From Candidatus Levyibacteriota bacterium (GTDB lineage: Bacteria > Patescibacteriota > Microgenomatia > Levybacterales > UBA12049), in the NCBI GenBank assembly GCA_016199085.1, contig JACQHJ010000001.1, positions 3,334 through 67,333 on the forward strand: a stretch of 64,000 bases of DNA, given 5' to 3'. Position 1 is the first letter of the stretch; the number at the start of each line of letters is the position of its first letter. Positions 20,767 through 25,404 of the stretch are shown here, piece by piece. The position numbers were made by a program, and so were the translations under genes. Below the pieces are notes generated by a model that did no database searches, was not told the DNA's origin, and saw nothing but the letters and a program-made list of their open reading frames with translations.

Positions 20767-21204
20767 ATGAAAAACAATATTAGCATATCAATAAGAAATG
20801 CCGCAGTTTCGACTATTATCCTTTTGCTAATTTATATCTCGATTGTTTCATTTGTAAGCGGATGGGATTTTACCAAAGACCAATTTTCAAGATATTGGTA
20901 TTTTATCATAACGCTTGCGATAGGATTTGGCACTCAAGTTGGTTTTTACACCTATCTTAAAAATGCAATCAAACAAAATGCTTCGCCAAGGGTTTTGGCT
21001 GTTTCAGGGACAACCTCAACAGCGGCTATGATTTCATGCTGCGCCCATTATCTTGTAAATCTTTTGCCAATCTTAGGAGCAGTAGGTATTATTACTGTTA
21101 TTTCTCAATATCAAATTCAACTCTTCTGGGTAGGAATTGCTTTTAATTTTTTAGGAATAGCTTATATGGCAAATAAAGTTTACAAATTTTCAAAAGTAAT
21201 ATGA
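20767..21204 (+). CDS. small polytopic membrane protein with intramembrane CC motif
   Basis: 4 predicted TM helices with MISCCAHYL in TM3. Confidence 0.5.
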   Translation: MKNNISISIRNAAVSTIILLLIYISIVSFVSGWDFTKDQFSRYWYFIITLAIGFGTQVGFYTYLKNAIKQNASPRVLAVSGTTSTAAMISCCAHYLVNLLPILGAVGIITVISQYQIQLFWVGIAFNFLGIAYMANKVYKFSKVI

Positions 21205-21650
21205 GAAATAAATTAATTTTACTTTCGGTCTTAATAATAAGTTTAGCAATTCTTGCTTTTGTTATTTTGAAATTGCCAAGTCAAAACACCCAAACCCAAA
21301 TCCAACCAAAAAGTAAAACAAGTGTTTTATACGAATCAAAAACAGATGAAAAGGGATCAGTAGTAGTAGAGGTCAAGCCGCTTTCGTTAATACCAAAAGA
21401 CAATGTTTCATTTAATCTTACGTTTACGACCCATTCGGGTGATCTTAGCTATGATATTGCTGCTATTGCAAAACTTCAAGACGATAAGGGAAATACATCT
21501 AAAGCCCTATCCTGGACTGGAGGGAAAGGCGGACATCATCTATCGGGTATCCTTACATTCCCTAAACTATCAGAAGATGCTTGGGCTGTGACATTAACAA
21601 TTTCGGGAATTGATAATCAGGATAGGATTTTTGAATGGGAATTAAACTAA
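21201..21650 (+). CDS. hypothetical secreted beta-rich protein
   Basis: Signal anchor followed by a domain with an Ig-like composition (GGKGGHH). Overlaps its neighbours by 4 nt. Confidence 0.45.
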   Translation: MRNKLILLSVLIISLAILAFVILKLPSQNTQTQIQPKSKTSVLYESKTDEKGSVVVEVKPLSLIPKDNVSFNLTFTTHSGDLSYDIAAIAKLQDDKGNTSKALSWTGGKGGHHLSGILTFPKLSEDAWAVTLTISGIDNQDRIFEWELN

Positions 21651-21654
21651 GTAT

Positions 21655-21975
21655 ATGAAAAATAATTTAGTGGCCTGGGTTATAGGAGCGTTGGTTGTCG
21701 GAGGATTTTTTGGATTTTTAATCGGACAAAACAATCAGACATTTGAAAGAGACAGCATGAATGAAGCCGCCTCAATGATGAAAGATAACGGTTCTTACAT
21801 GATGCAGATGGGAAAAATGATGAGGGAAAACGGAATGATGATGCAAAATATGGGAACACAAATGGGAGATCAGGATTTTTCCCAAAAAGGTAAAGAATTG
21901 GAAGATAATGGAGGAATGATGGAGGAAAGAGGTTCCCAAATGAACGATCGCGGTAATGGAATGATGAACTATTAA
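21655..21975 (+). CDS. methionine-rich small membrane-anchored protein (putative Cu(I)-binding, Met-motif)
   Basis: After the TM anchor, 25 of about 80 residues are Met, in MxxM/MMxxM arrays (SYMMQMGKMMRENGMMMQNMGTQMG...GGMMEERGSQMNDRGNGMMNY). Confidence 0.6.
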   Translation: MKNNLVAWVIGALVVGGFFGFLIGQNNQTFERDSMNEAASMMKDNGSYMMQMGKMMRENGMMMQNMGTQMGDQDFSQKGKELEDNGGMMEERGSQMNDRGNGMMNY

Positions 21976-21983
21976 AAAAGGAG

Positions 21984-22256
21984 GTGAGAATAATGTTAAA
22001 ACCAATAGCATTAGCAAATGCGTCTGCAGTTGTTGCACTAGGCATTTATGTTTTGTGCTGGATTTTGGCGCTTGTTGCTCCTGACTTTCTTTTCGTTGTT
22101 GCCAAAAGCTGGTTTCATGCATTTAACATTGACAGCGCGCAGACTGCAGCTTCGCTAAACATTGTGGAATTGGCCTTAGGAGCAGTAGCGCTATCTGTAT
22201 TAGTCTGGGTAACTTTCTACGCCGGGGCTGTTTTGTACAATAAATGGGCAGAATAG
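21984..22256 (+). CDS. small two-TM membrane protein
   Basis: Strong SD (AAAGGAGGTGAG) 8 nt upstream. 90 aa, hydrophobic. Confidence 0.5.
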   Translation: MRIMLKPIALANASAVVALGIYVLCWILALVAPDFLFVVAKSWFHAFNIDSAQTAASLNIVELALGAVALSVLVWVTFYAGAVLYNKWAE

Positions 22257-22455
22257 ATCCTAGCGTTACCGATTAAGTTTTTACAGAGTGGTAATTATAG
22301 TATTTGGCGGGTTATATTTTTATGGAGGAAAATATTCAGCTACGGAGATTATACTTAAAACAAGTGCGTCGGGGGGATACCAGGGAGACGTAGTGATGGC
22401 AGGAATTGCTAACCCAAAAAAATACAAGGAGATAATCAGTAAATATTTCTAGTGA

Positions 22456-22484
22456 TTGACAAATATAAGAAGTCTTGCTAATAT
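22456..22484 (+). promoter_or_regulatory. sigma70 promoter TTGACA-N17-TGcTAATAT driving csoR
   Basis: Consensus -35 hexamer, 17-nt spacer and extended -10, read directly from the sequence. Confidence 0.6.
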
Positions 22485-22503
22485 ATCCCCTATAGGGGGA
22501 TAT
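22483..22503 (+). promoter_or_regulatory. CsoR-type operator: ATATCCCCTATAGGGGGATAT (C-tract/G-tract pseudo-palindrome)
   Basis: Overlaps the -10 element and +1, and lies 19 nt upstream of csoR. It has the same architecture as known CsoR operators (TACCC...GGGTA type). Confidence 0.65.
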
Positions 22504-22521
22504 CTGTAAAGAAAGAAAAAT

Positions 22522-22791
22522 ATGGCATATAGACCAAAAGATACTCAGGAAAGAATCATACACCGCCTTAAAATTGCCAGAGGACAACTGGACGCTGTTA
22601 TAAAAATGGTAGTAGAAGATAAATACTGCATTGATGTAATTCATCAATCCAAAGCTGTTCAGGAGGCATTGAAGCAAATAGACAACATAATGCTTGAAAA
22701 CCATTTACAAACCTGCGTTGGTGATTCTTTCAAAAGTGGTAATCAGAAAAAAGCAACAGAAGAGCTAATGCGGGTTTTTCGCAAAAACTAA
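22522..22791 (+). CDS. csoR: CsoR/RcnR-family copper-sensing repressor
   Basis: 89 aa. RIARGQLDAVIKMVVEDKYCIDVIHQSKAVQEAL...LQTC is the CsoR four-helix-bundle signature with Cys-His-Cys ligands. Confidence 0.85.
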   Translation: MAYRPKDTQERIIHRLKIARGQLDAVIKMVVEDKYCIDVIHQSKAVQEALKQIDNIMLENHLQTCVGDSFKSGNQKKATEELMRVFRKN

Positions 22792-22797
22792 ACAGAT

Positions 22798-23016
22798 ATG
22801 GATTTTACCTATGCCTATTTAATTGCCAGTATTTTACTATTATTTGTTTGGCTTTTTCCAGGTTACGTTGAAGCAGTTTGGAATTTAAAGGCAATTTCAG
22901 GAATTCTGATTGTCGGAATTCCTATCGAAGAACTTTTATTTGCGGCCTCTCTTGGCGCAATGTGGAGCAGTATTTACGAACATTTTAGTTGGTATAAATT
23001 CTCAAAAAAATTATAA
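22798..23016 (+). CDS. small two-TM membrane protein
   Basis: 72-aa hydrophobic ORF located between csoR and the ATPase gene. Confidence 0.4.
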   Translation: MDFTYAYLIASILLLFVWLFPGYVEAVWNLKAISGILIVGIPIEELLFAASLGAMWSSIYEHFSWYKFSKKL

Positions 23017-23048
23017 AGATTTATATAACTTAGGATATGAATAAAAAT

Positions 23049-23171
23049 ATGACTACATATATTTGTCCAATGCATAAAGAAGTGCAATTAGATAAACCCG
23101 GTAGATGCCCAAAGTGTGGCATGAAATTAGTTGAAAAAGGAAAGGAGAAAAACAATGAATGCTGCTGCTAA
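23049..23171 (+). CDS. 40-aa stand-alone YHS/TRASH-type metal-binding mini-ORF ending in CCC (possibly a frameshifted first metal-binding domain of the ATPase)
   Basis: MTTYICPMHKEVQLDKPGRCPKCGMKLVEKGKEKNNECCC. It nearly duplicates the ATPase N-terminus (IVYSCPMHSEVRSDKPGTCPKCGMRL). Its 3' end overlaps the ATPase start in a different frame. Confidence 0.5.
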   Translation: MTTYICPMHKEVQLDKPGRCPKCGMKLVEKGKEKNNECCC

Positions 23172-25404
23172 AAATGGAAAAATAATAGTTTATTCTTGCC
23201 CGATGCATTCGGAAGTTCGCTCAGACAAGCCCGGAACCTGTCCAAAATGCGGTATGAGGCTTATTGAAACAAAAGTGGAGAAAGACCACAAAGATGGAAA
23301 TCAAACTATGAAACACGGAGAGCATGTAATGCAGCCTACTTCTGAAATGTCATTCTGGGATAAATTCAAAATGAGCATGACCATGAGTATGGGTATGGAG
23401 CATGGAGGGTTGGCTGGGAGGGAGATGGCAAAACTTATGGAAGAGGATATTCGCAATAAGTTTTTCTTTGCACTTTTTTTATCGTTTCCGATTATTCTCT
23501 ATTCTCCACTTGGAACCCAATTTCTAAAAATAAGTTTGCCGGAACTTATTCCAACACCCTGGCTTTTGTTTTTACTCACAACTCCTGTTTTTTTCTATTC
23601 CGGATGGATTTTTTTGTATTCAACCTACAAAGCATTACAGGCGAAAACCTTAAATATGGCAGTTCTTATTGCGGTCGGTATTACAGCAGCTTATGTCTTT
23701 AGTGTTGTTTTGACTCTTCTTGGAAGCTTAGACTCGTATTATGAGGCTGCAGCACTTCTTATTACTTTTGTTCTCTTTGGGCACTGGATGGAAATGAAAT
23801 CAAGAAGGGGGACAACAGATGCTCTGCAGGCGCTTTTTAATTTAGTACCCCCTCAGGCAAGAATACTTAGAAACGGGAGAGAAGAACTTATCCCAACTTC
23901 CCAGGTAAAGCTTGGAGATATTATTATTCTTAAACCAGGAGATAAAGTGCCGGTTGACGGGCAAATCTTAGATGGCGAAACAGCAATAGATGAGTCTTTG
24001 GTAACGGGAGAGTCACTCCCGGTTGCCAAGAAAAAAGGAGATAATGTAATTGGAGGCTCAATTAATACTTCCGGTTCAGTTAGATTTAAAGCAACAAAAG
24101 TCGGAGAGGATACTGCTCTTGCTCAGATTGTTAAAATGGTAGAAACAGCGCAAAGCTCAAAAGCTCCGGGACAGAAAATTGCAGACAGGTTTGCAAAATA
24201 TCTCGTAATTGTTGCAGTCGGAGGCGGACTGCTAACTTTCTCAATCTGGTTTTTTGTAATTGGTCAAACTTTAATGTTTGCCTTAACTTTTGCAATTTCT
24301 ACTGTAGTAATAGCCTGTCCTGATGCCTTGGGGCTTGCCACGCCCACTGCTGTTGCAGTTGGAACAGGACTTGGTGCAAAGCACAATATCCTTATTAAGG
24401 ATGCACCCACCCTTGAGCAAGCTTCAAAAATTCAAGCAATAGTTTTAGATAAAACTGGGACTTTGACCCAAGGCAAACCTACCATTACCGACATCGTTTC
24501 CGCAGAAGGATTTTCGGAAAACGAAATCATTGAACTTGACGCAGCAGCGGAAGCCAAATCTTCTCATCCATTAAGTCAGGCAATTTTGGAGGAAGCAAAG
24601 AAAAGAAAATTAACTATTCCAACTAAGGTTGAAGGTTTTAAAAATCTTGCAGGACATGGGGTTGAGGCGAAAGTTTTAGGAAAGCACGTTCTTGTTGGAA
24701 CCGTAAAGCTTATGAATGATAGGAGCGTAGATATAACATCTTTACAAAAAGAAATTGATAGATTACTAATGCAGGGAAAAACAATTATGGTTTTGGCGGT
24801 TGATGGGGAAATTGCCGGAATAGCGGCAGCCTTAGATCCAATAAAAGAAAATGCAAAAATCGCAGTTGAGCGTATGAAAGAGCTTGGACTGGAAGTTGCT
24901 ATGATTACGGGAGACAATAAAAAAACCGGAGAATCAATTGGAAGGGAGCTTGGAATAGATAGGGTTTTTGCTGAAGTACTCCCCGAAGATAAAGCAAAAT
25001 ATGTTAAAAAACTTCAGGATGAAGGTAAATTCGTTGCAATGGTTGGAGATGGAGTTAATGATGCTCCGGCTCTTGCACAGGCTGACATTGGAATTGCAAT
25101 TGGTGCAGGAACAGATGTGGCAATTGAGACTGCAAAAATAGTCCTTATGAAATCAGATCCTCTTGATATTTTAAGAGCAATTAAGCTTTCAAAAGCAACC
25201 GTTACAAAAATGAAACAAAATCTATTCTGGGCATCGATTTACAATTTACTGGCAATTCCGATTGCCGCAGGAGTTTTATATCCTAAATTTGGCCTAGAAC
25301 TTCGTCCTGAGTTTGCAGCACTTCTTATGAGTGTATCCTCAATTATAGTAGCAACAAATGCAGTGCTTTTGAATAGAGCTGAAAAAAACCTGATAACTAT
25401 TTAA
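23155..25404 (+). CDS. copA: P1B-type heavy-metal (Cu+) translocating ATPase with N-terminal YHS domain and Met-rich segment; TM6 motif is CPD rather than CPC
   Basis: DKTGTLT, GDGVNDAPAL, SSHPLSQAI (HP motif), TM7 YN (SIYNLL), TM8 MSVSS, a TGES actuator motif, and an N-terminal CPMH...CPKCGM. The TM6 region reads IACPDALGLATPTA. The start is assigned at the ATG at 23155, which has a GGAGA SD. The ORF track uses a TTG at 23131. Confidence 0.9.
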   Translation: MNAAAKNGKIIVYSCPMHSEVRSDKPGTCPKCGMRLIETKVEKDHKDGNQTMKHGEHVMQPTSEMSFWDKFKMSMTMSMGMEHGGLAGREMAKLMEEDIRNKFFFALFLSFPIILYSPLGTQFLKISLPELIPTPWLLFLLTTPVFFYSGWIFLYSTYKALQAKTLNMAVLIAVGITAAYVFSVVLTLLGSLDSYYEAAALLITFVLFGHWMEMKSRRGTTDALQALFNLVPPQARILRNGREELIPTSQVKLGDIIILKPGDKVPVDGQILDGETAIDESLVTGESLPVAKKKGDNVIGGSINTSGSVRFKATKVGEDTALAQIVKMVETAQSSKAPGQKIADRFAKYLVIVAVGGGLLTFSIWFFVIGQTLMFALTFAISTVVIACPDALGLATPTAVAVGTGLGAKHNILIKDAPTLEQASKIQAIVLDKTGTLTQGKPTITDIVSAEGFSENEIIELDAAAEAKSSHPLSQAILEEAKKRKLTIPTKVEGFKNLAGHGVEAKVLGKHVLVGTVKLMNDRSVDITSLQKEIDRLLMQGKTIMVLAVDGEIAGIAAALDPIKENAKIAVERMKELGLEVAMITGDNKKTGESIGRELGIDRVFAEVLPEDKAKYVKKLQDEGKFVAMVGDGVNDAPALAQADIGIAIGAGTDVAIETAKIVLMKSDPLDILRAIKLSKATVTKMKQNLFWASIYNLLAIPIAAGVLYPKFGLELRPEFAALLMSVSSIIVATNAVLLNRAEKNLITI

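Follow-up and report, generated by a model that had tools for sequence, protein, structure and literature searches.

A 64,000-nucleotide stretch of the genome of a Candidatus Levyibacteriota bacterium (assembly GCA_016199085.1, contig JACQHJ010000001.1, positions 3,334 to 67,333 of the forward strand; hereafter the window) contains the gene of a P1B-type heavy-metal ATPase of 749 amino acids (23155..25404, + strand). Its metal-site motif reads Cys-Pro-Asp (CPD), and its start is overlapped, in another frame, by an open reading frame (ORF) of 40 codons (23049..23171, + strand), here called the mini-ORF. Is the mini-ORF a gene in its own right, and to what kind of pump is it attached? The answer preferred here, with a probability of about 0.6 for the reading taken as a whole, is that the mini-ORF encodes a separately translated HMBD micro-protein, that its translation is coupled to that of a CopB-like CPD pump, and that both would lie at the distal end of a CsoR-repressed, copper-inducible operon in a Microgenomates/Levybacteria-type host of the Candidate Phyla Radiation. 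Both features had been raised in an earlier note made from the letters of the window.

Identity of the mini-ORF

The translated mini-ORF (MTTYICPMHKEVQLDKPGRCPKCGMKLVEKGKEKNNECCC) was matched by the Pfam family HMBD (PF19335) at 59.4 bits (E 3e-16; gathering cut-off 23.6 bits) and has both the CPMH and the CPxCGM knuckles. The score is higher than that of the HMBD at the N-terminus of the pump itself (46.3 bits; CPMH ... CPKCGM; 23197..23256, + strand; aligned to LpCopA residues 31-64). An alternative start, ATG 23037, would give 44 residues; of the two, 23049 is conserved as a start in locus L085, a metagenome-assembled genome (MAG) of Patescibacteria. That a metal-binding-domain ORF overlaps the pump start out of frame, as the earlier note had proposed, was borne out by this match and by a second copy on contig L081, described below. 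The family is another one, since YHS (PF04945), the domain named in that note, gave no match at E<=1 with either mini-ORF sequence or at E<=0.01 with the pump. A chaperone of the CopZ/Atx1 type was also considered and rejected, the mini-ORF having no MxCxxC and no HMA match in Pfam. One paper that cites PF19335 describes an MxCxxC/Atx1-like protein and was not used for HMBD.

Comparison with the metal-binding domain (MBD) of LpCopA (PDB 8OVL) gave a phmmer E-value of 3.9e-6, with residues 39-64 matched. The fold there is a three-stranded sheet with a rubredoxin knuckle. Ag+/Cu+ is bound by the CPMH Met, the second of the CxxC cysteines and the CGM Met, and the authors of the study give the domain a sensing or regulatory role and not one in delivery (PMC11970713). 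The mini-ORF sequence retains both knuckle motifs and all of the Ag+/Cu+-binding residues. The LpCopA domain is tethered to its pump and preceded by an autoinhibitory tail, whereas the mini-ORF product is a predicted free peptide of 40 residues, with a Lys-rich stretch and a C-terminal CCC as features of its own. In csoR-copZ-copA operons, too, a CsoR-controlled gene for a small metal-binding protein comes directly before the pump gene; CopZ/Atx1 proteins are of about 70 residues and the mini-ORF peptide of about 40.

The two HMBDs were 68% identical in both protein and DNA, and their synonymous sites were saturated (proportion of synonymous differences, pS, 0.78), which ruled out a recent tandem duplication of the pump's domain. 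The description of the mini-ORF as nearly duplicating that domain was therefore overstated, and the sequences mark the pair as an old divergence. About 30 small HMBD-only proteins are present in public data, several of them named by NCBI "heavy metal-binding domain-containing protein". Exact-sequence look-ups of the mini-ORF product (40- and 44-residue forms) and of P0001, the closest database relative of the pump, in a protein collection returned nothing on record.

Conservation of the mini-ORF

A profile search returned P0121, a called protein of 54 amino acids, 76% identical to the mini-ORF product and encoded on L081, a Logan contig (SRR22388270) from an independent sample and from a different, diverged organism. 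The C-terminus KLVEKG(K/R)EK(N/D)NECCC* is common to the two. In L081 the next gene encodes a CPD-type pump starting MNAVAKN..., with a 17-nucleotide overlap (847-863) and a frame relation just as in the window; a strong ribosome-binding site, AAGGAG-N6-ATG, stands before the small ORF. Because this arrangement recurs in an independent assembly, a sequencing artefact was ruled out. A metagenome scan with the junction pattern AATGAATGYTGYTGYTAAAAATG produced one unrelated chance match (L084) and no further copies of the junction.

Selection was estimated on a 25-codon core of the mini-ORF. Between the window and L081, 7.5 synonymous differences were counted over 13.2 sites and 7.5 non-synonymous differences over 61.8 sites, corresponding to an omega (non-synonymous to synonymous ratio) of about 0.12 (Fisher p = 0.001; binomial p = 0.002-0.009). 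The L085 homologue gave values of 0.03-0.04 against the window and L081, and the range over the three pairs was 0.03-0.12. The pump genes of the window and L081 are saturated in synonymous divergence (dS ~2), and over that divergence the mini-ORF has gained no stop codon and no indel and has lost no ligand. Because omega is low and the ORF and its ligands were kept despite saturated dS, these comparisons argue for selection acting on the peptide. Of the three explanations offered in the earlier note, an independently translated, metallochaperone-like peptide fits best.

Overlap and predicted coupling

The overlap occupies 23155..23171 (+ strand) and is read as ATG AAT GCT GCT GCT AAA in the pump frame and as AAT GAA TGC TGC TGC TAA in the mini-ORF frame, which lies one base behind. 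The mini-ORF ends in NECCC-TAA, its stop falling 14 nucleotides past the pump ATG. The ATPase ORF is open from TTG 23131, and its likely start is ATG 23155, which has a Shine-Dalgarno (SD) sequence of its own, AGGAG (23143..23147, + strand), at a spacing of 7 nucleotides; L081 has GGGAG in its place. Since this AGGAG lies within the mini-ORF coding sequence and the mini-ORF stop just past the pump ATG, translational coupling is predicted. The weak SD of the mini-ORF was considered as an argument against its translation and rejected: SD-like motifs precede only 6 of the 47 first ATGs of long ORFs in the window, many of which have A-rich leaders instead, and the leader of csoR is A-rich in a similar way.

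The CPD pump and its lineage

The pump scored 612 bits with TIGR01525 (cut-off 346) and 589 bits with TIGR01511 (cut-off 397), was matched by Pfam E1-E2_ATPase and Hydrolase, and has the DKTGT (24448-24462), TGES, GDGxND and HP motifs and the CPx helix of P1B ATPases. The CPD motif (TGT CCT GAT, residues 388-390) is located at 24316..24324 within IACPDALGLATP. The remaining signatures listed in the earlier note all stand where expected: YN (Y696/N697, 25240-25245, aligned to LpCopA Y688/N689), MSVSS (M725...S729, 25327-25341, aligned to LpCopA M717/S721), SSHP (24559-24570) and the Met-rich MSMTMSMGM just before the first membrane helix (23371..23397); all of these features are on the + strand. 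The solved structures nearest to the pump are AfCopA and LpCopA (E ~1e-165). In the alignment D390 stands opposite LpCopA C384, and the equivalents of M148, E205, C382, Y688, N689, M717 and S721 are retained.

Close homologues were represented by the 120 best database proteins, with 77-100% identity to the pump, and genomic context by 80 loci kept from at least 571 matching stretches in a scan of GTDB with one genome per species. IACPDALGLATP is present in 120/120 of the former and CPD in 80/80 of the latter, and none of either set has CPC, the finding that would have counted against the motif. The loci belong to Patescibacteria of many classes and to a few Bathyarchaeota and Micrarchaeota MAGs. 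Because of this invariance CPD reads as a trait of the lineage and not as a sequencing error, in agreement with the earlier note. When the representatives of 50%-identity clusters were searched exhaustively, the four entries with the best scores and two further ones were CPD pumps of 48-62% identity; CPC pumps (up to about 50% identity) and CPH pumps (41-46%) ranked below them.

The note had expected that alignment to relatives might show CPD to define a clade, and this was found, the CPD sequences grouping beside CPH and away from CPC in a neighbour-joining (NJ) tree without bootstrap. Two membrane motifs agree with that placement. In the second transmembrane helix (TM2), GHW(M/L/I/F)EM is common to CPD and CPH pumps, whereas the CPC class has G(K/R)xLEA; in TM8, MSxS(S/T)..IV..NA (SSIIVA.NA) is common to the two, whereas CPC pumps have MAxSSVSVV.NS. 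In the window the TM2 motif is FGHWMEMK (23776..23799, + strand), whose E213 aligns with LpCopA E205. On these sequences the CPD lineage is nearer to CopB than to CopA. The Asp codon is two base changes from Cys and one from His (CAT -> GAT; CAY -> GAY), so that the earlier count of two changes is right for a Cys ancestor, and under CPH ancestry, which the relatives indicate, a single change would suffice.

The pump thus corresponds to neither named class in full, and the label of a CopA departing from a near-invariant CPC or CPH had to be given up, as it groups with CopB-type CPH pumps and its subtype had already been reported. It has the YN of TM7 and the MxxSS of TM8 of CopA (P1B-1), with CPD for CPC, and reached 579 bits with the CopA equivalog NF007952, below the cut-off of 1316. 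Compared with LpCopA (3RFU) and AfCopA (7R0G), all Cu(I)-pathway residues but one are kept, and the N-terminal HMBD is of the LpCopA type; the second Cys of CPC is Asp, and TM2 and TM8 are of the CopB type. With CopB (P1B-3) the pump shares TM2 GHWxEM, TM8 MSxS(S/T)..IVA.NA, YN and its neighbourhood in the NJ tree without bootstrap, and some CPH pumps also have an HMBD (P0180, P0190 and the L086 pump). It differs from CopB in having Asp for His after the proline and, in place of a His-rich N-terminus, an HMBD and a Met-rich segment with His only scattered.

The CPD subtype was reported in 2017 for three alphaproteobacterial pumps, clade VIc, which were placed with P1B-3 (Cubillas et al. 2017, PMC5552934). 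Judged against that description, the window pump has the CPD of the CPx helix, YN(x)4P, MSxSS, few N-terminal His and a position next to CPH. The published proteins are longer and have other N-termini; the window branch, which is patescibacterial and archaeal, has an HMBD and a conserved Met-rich segment, at about 50% identity. No functional study of any CPD pump was found in the searchable literature. CueA of Bradyrhizobium liaoningense, which is CsoR-regulated, was considered as a characterised CPD pump and rejected because it is CPC (PMC5057107).

The segment KFKMSMTMSMGMEHGGLAGREMA (23359-23430) separates the HMBD from the first membrane helix. It hardly varies within the Patescibacteria CPD branch and may form an extra Cu(I)-binding platform. 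The strict pattern [FLM]K[MVL]S[ML]xMxMGMEHxG[LI]AGREMA was found in 87/120 close homologues, and a segment of the KFKMSMTMSMGMEHGGLAGREMA type was not seen in the printed N-terminal stretches of more distant CPD representatives.

The best database protein, P0001, is 100% identical to the pump and is named by NCBI a copper-translocating P-type ATPase of a Candidatus Levybacteria MAG. Its entry begins at MHSEV inside the HMBD, and a normal ATG lies upstream in the window (23155-23205). About 20 of the 120 close homologues have truncated starts of this kind. As possible markers of further split loci, these "MH(S/P)EV..." starts were rejected: L082 and L083, which were checked, have a normal ATG upstream and no mini-ORF, their starts being start-codon choices.

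The operon and its regulator

The order of elements on the + strand (22450-25404) is promoter with CsoR box, csoR, a Lycopene_cyc relic, mini-ORF and pump. The promoter-like site upstream of csoR (TTGACA-17 nt-TAATAT, with TG before the second hexamer; 22456..22484, + strand) matches at 10/12 consensus positions, and is a consensus match only. A CsoR-box-like palindrome, ATATCCCC-TATAG-GGGGATAT (22483..22503, no strand assigned), with 8-nucleotide arms that are 100% complementary, overlaps the -10 hexamer and is the single match of the CsoR-box pattern within the 64-kb window. It resembles the published CsoR boxes ATACCCCnnnGGGGTAT and TATACCCnnnnnGGGTATA (PMC5057107). CsoR-box-like sequences were present also in eight related loci, in one of which (L052) the box is directly upstream of the pump.

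The csoR gene (22522..22791, + strand) encodes a CsoR/RcnR-family copper-sensing repressor of 89 amino acids (Pfam Trns_repr_metal PF02583, 82 bits); its best NCBIfam match was RicR, with a score under the RicR cut-off. The translation has Y35, C36, H61, C65 and E81, in the Cu(I)-type x-C-H-C pattern; in M. tuberculosis CsoR these positions are occupied by the Cu(I) ligands and by residues of the second shell. The family match, these ligands and the predicted palindromic operator at the promoter agree in placing the protein with CsoR. A CsoR gene was found within 4 kb of the pump in 27/80 loci.

Between csoR and the mini-ORF lies an ORF of 72 amino acids with a Lycopene_cyc-domain match in Pfam (22798..23016, + strand). 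Its bases 22798-22851 align to the start, and 22843-23016 to the end, of an intact 231-residue gene in L085 (4254-4949). It has the first ~18 and the last ~55 codons of that gene, with an in-frame internal deletion of about 480 nucleotides, and is probably a decaying relic.

Upstream of the promoter, metal-island genes occupy 20767..22256 (+ strand) and encode a membrane protein of 145 amino acids with CCAHY, a protein of 149 amino acids with one N-terminal helix, a very Met-rich protein of 106 amino acids (MMQMGKMMRENGMMMQNMG) and a DUF5676 protein. Of the 80 loci, 13-17 have homologues of these genes no more than 4 kb from the pump, and homologues were found also in L083 and L086. A search of 22200-23400 for structured RNAs and riboswitches with Rfam gave no match at E<=1. 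Given the Cu(I)-type CsoR, the CsoR box and the recurrent island genes, copper is the likely inducing metal and, by extension, the likely substrate of the pump.

Proposed mechanism

Under the preferred reading, copper would release CsoR from its box, and one transcript would yield the HMBD peptide, translated from an A-rich leader, and the pump, translated by coupling across the 17-nucleotide overlap. The peptide, an HMBD of about 4.5 kDa with a rubredoxin knuckle encoded by a separate gene, would bind Cu(I) through a Met/Cys/Met (or Cys/His/Cys/Cys) site and could act in the cytosol as a soluble buffer, a sensor or a donor for the pump. The result would be comparable to that of CopZ or E. coli CopA(Z), reached with another fold. 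The pump would export cytosolic copper by way of Cys388, Asp390 and Met725, a Cys-S/Met-S/Asp-O site taking the place of the all-sulfur site. As to origin, an HMBD 5' module was probably detached from the sequence downstream of it, by a rearrangement or by the insertion of one base, and the peptide would later have been kept by selection.

Alternative explanations

Several points weigh against this reading. The exact arrangement was found in the window and L081 only, and in none of the 80 GTDB loci. With two instances, the estimate of selection had very few sites to draw on. The CCC tail could be no more than the pump's N-A-A-A codons read out of frame, and an origin of the mini-ORF as a relic is plausible, since related loci (L085, L086) also strand 5' pieces of HMBDs. 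Addition of the LpCopA MBD core in trans left the activity of a truncated pump unchanged in vitro (PMC11970713), which advises caution toward a simple metal-delivery model. Finally, 12/80 loci (L010, L011, L016, L042, L043, L047, L053, L054, L057, L062, L066 and L075) have a canonical CPC ATPase no more than 4 kb from the CPD pump and, in nearly every case, on its strand; this suggests that the two pumps are not redundant and hints at a different job for the CPD pump.

The last point leads to the alternative that survives best, a tentative one, namely that the CPD pump is not a CopA-like Cu(I) exporter and instead moves Cu(II) or another divalent ion, or has a changed affinity or role (cuproprotein loading as against detoxification). 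In the alignment to LpCopA, D390 falls where P2-type ATPases have the Glu of their PEGL motif, a residue that binds hard cations. The CPC neighbours and the lack of functional studies in the searchable literature leave room for such a role. It must be set against the conservation of all other Cu(I)-pathway residues, the Cu(I)-type CsoR with its box, and the Met-rich character of the N-terminus and of the neighbouring proteins. CPH-type CopB, the nearest class, has moreover been reassigned to Cu(I) (PMC7558416).

An unlikely but substantial alternative concerns the mini-ORF, which would then be a non-functional recombination scar, the 5' HMBD end of an earlier gene, at most incidentally translated. 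It would have stayed behind when the present pump cassette, with an HMBD and a ribosome-binding site of its own, became joined to it on the 3' side. The history of the junction makes such an origin credible. L085 is 83% identical to the window over 312 nucleotides, from the end of Lycopene_cyc through the HMBD to 23154, and the homology ends at the base just before the pump ATG, after which a C-terminal fragment of an ICMT-like methyltransferase follows. Where the two are homologous, the window is longer by a single base, GAAAAA(G)GAA. The one-base split reads as old, being common to the window and L081.

Three related loci show other outcomes of this kind. In L085 (4980-5183) the HMBD module (MTTYICPMHKEIQSEKPGRCPKCGMKLVEK) is fused to a tail like the C-terminus of an ICMT/PEMT-type methyltransferase; the chimeric ORF lies between the Lycopene_cyc and DUF5676 genes, with an intact ICMT gene 1.3 kb upstream. 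In L086 (2287-4062) an HMBD with linker, both of the CPD type, is followed by TAA, one codon and, in the same frame, the ATG of a CPH pump with an HMBD of its own, which looks like a cassette replacement that stranded the HMBD piece and thus like a second route to a free HMBD beside an HMBD-carrying pump. In L055 (340-520), a contig of 5x coverage, one A too many in an A6 run puts the sole HMBD of a CPD pump out of frame; this break is probably an error or a pseudogene. Because of L085, L086 and L055, the A-rich stretch 3' of the HMBD is taken to be a place where breaks and indels are frequent in these metal islands and where 5' modules of HMBDs are left stranded, and on the same alignments the mini-ORF very likely began as one such module.

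A scar is thus favoured by the exact end of the L085 homology, the CPD-type piece left before the CPH pump of L086, the deletion relic next door and the rarity of the arrangement. It does not readily explain why two lineages share the junction when synonymous divergence between their pump genes is saturated, why the ORF is intact, with its ligands kept and synonymous changes enriched about five-fold over neutral expectation, or why the small ORF of L081 has a strong ribosome-binding site. A beginning as a stranded module is also part of the preferred reading of a micro-protein gene under selection.

Much less probable is a programmed +1 frameshift, or transcriptional slippage, in the A/G-rich run 23131-23154, which would produce a tandem-HMBD pump together with the free HMBD; a recoding site and a frameshift-split tandem domain were the other two options of the earlier note. 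The frames would be joined by a +1 shift at any point in 23131-23168, or by the removal of one base from GAAAAAGGAA; the +1 frame is open from 23131. The window has exactly one base more than L085, and an in-frame tandem-HMBD CPD pump exists (P0112). AGGAG stands immediately 5' of AAA-AAC, the only good candidate for a slip site, and in prfB +1 shifting is known to be stimulated by an SD-like element nearby.

A precedent is offered by E. coli copA (Meydan 2017 and Drees 2017, references 175 and 176 in PMC7558416), of which the window would be the mirror image. The predicted outcome, a soluble copy of a pump domain alongside the pump, is the same; CopA(Z), the product of a -1 frameshift within copA, is an HMA domain of the ferredoxin-like kind, whereas the window has an HMBD in an upstream ORF with its own start and no evident frameshift signal.

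The AAAAAC run is not kept in L081, which reads AAAGAT (AAA-GAT at the slip site), and comparison of these two sequences gave no conserved slippery motif and no grounds for a programmed frameshift of the copA/CopA(Z) or prfB type. There is no rare or stop codon at the candidate site. No stimulating structure was found, the overlap folding worse than 199 of 200 shuffled controls (z = +2.17), and transcriptional slippage is efficient only in runs longer than five A. A canonical SD, an ATG and a complete HMBD belong to the pump itself, and among its relatives about 79% have one HMBD and about 20% none. The recoding site accordingly lacks specific support, while the split of a tandem domain was retained only as a possible evolutionary origin, given the extra base relative to L085. 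Finally, the proposal that the split is a homopolymer assembly or sequencing error and the CPD codon a base-call error, suggested by the A-rich region and by the probable error of the same kind in L055, is effectively refuted by the same frame relation in the independent assembly of a different organism (L081) and by the invariance of CPD in 200 independent sequences.

Implications

The pump is an ordinary member of a large and already noticed CopB-like CPD lineage, and the mini-ORF appears to be a rare, conserved gene for a stand-alone HMBD micro-protein, small HMBD-only proteins being already present in databases. Together they represent real biology that is only modestly unusual, and current understanding is not overturned. 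A bolder view is improbable: that the free, coupled HMBD peptide would be an unrecognised kind of copper chaperone or sensor, with a knuckle in place of the CopZ fold, acting in trans on a CopB-like pump, perhaps with a tandem-HMBD isoform made by +1 frameshifting, and that the TM4 Asp would separately give CPD pumps a selectivity or chemistry distinct from those of CopA and CopB.

For annotation, the locus is a reminder that a conserved peptide may have no called gene product in the collection searched and that the database entry of a pump may start inside its HMBD. CPD pumps are widespread (at least 571 stretches in species-representative genomes) and often stand beside a canonical CopA. With Asp at the key ligand position, in which CopA (Cys) and CopB (His) differ, they are a natural experiment on how that ligand determines selectivity in P1B pumps. 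The mini-ORF provides a natural case of an HMBD apart from its pump and so bears on the debate over whether such domains deliver metal or sense it (PMC11970713).

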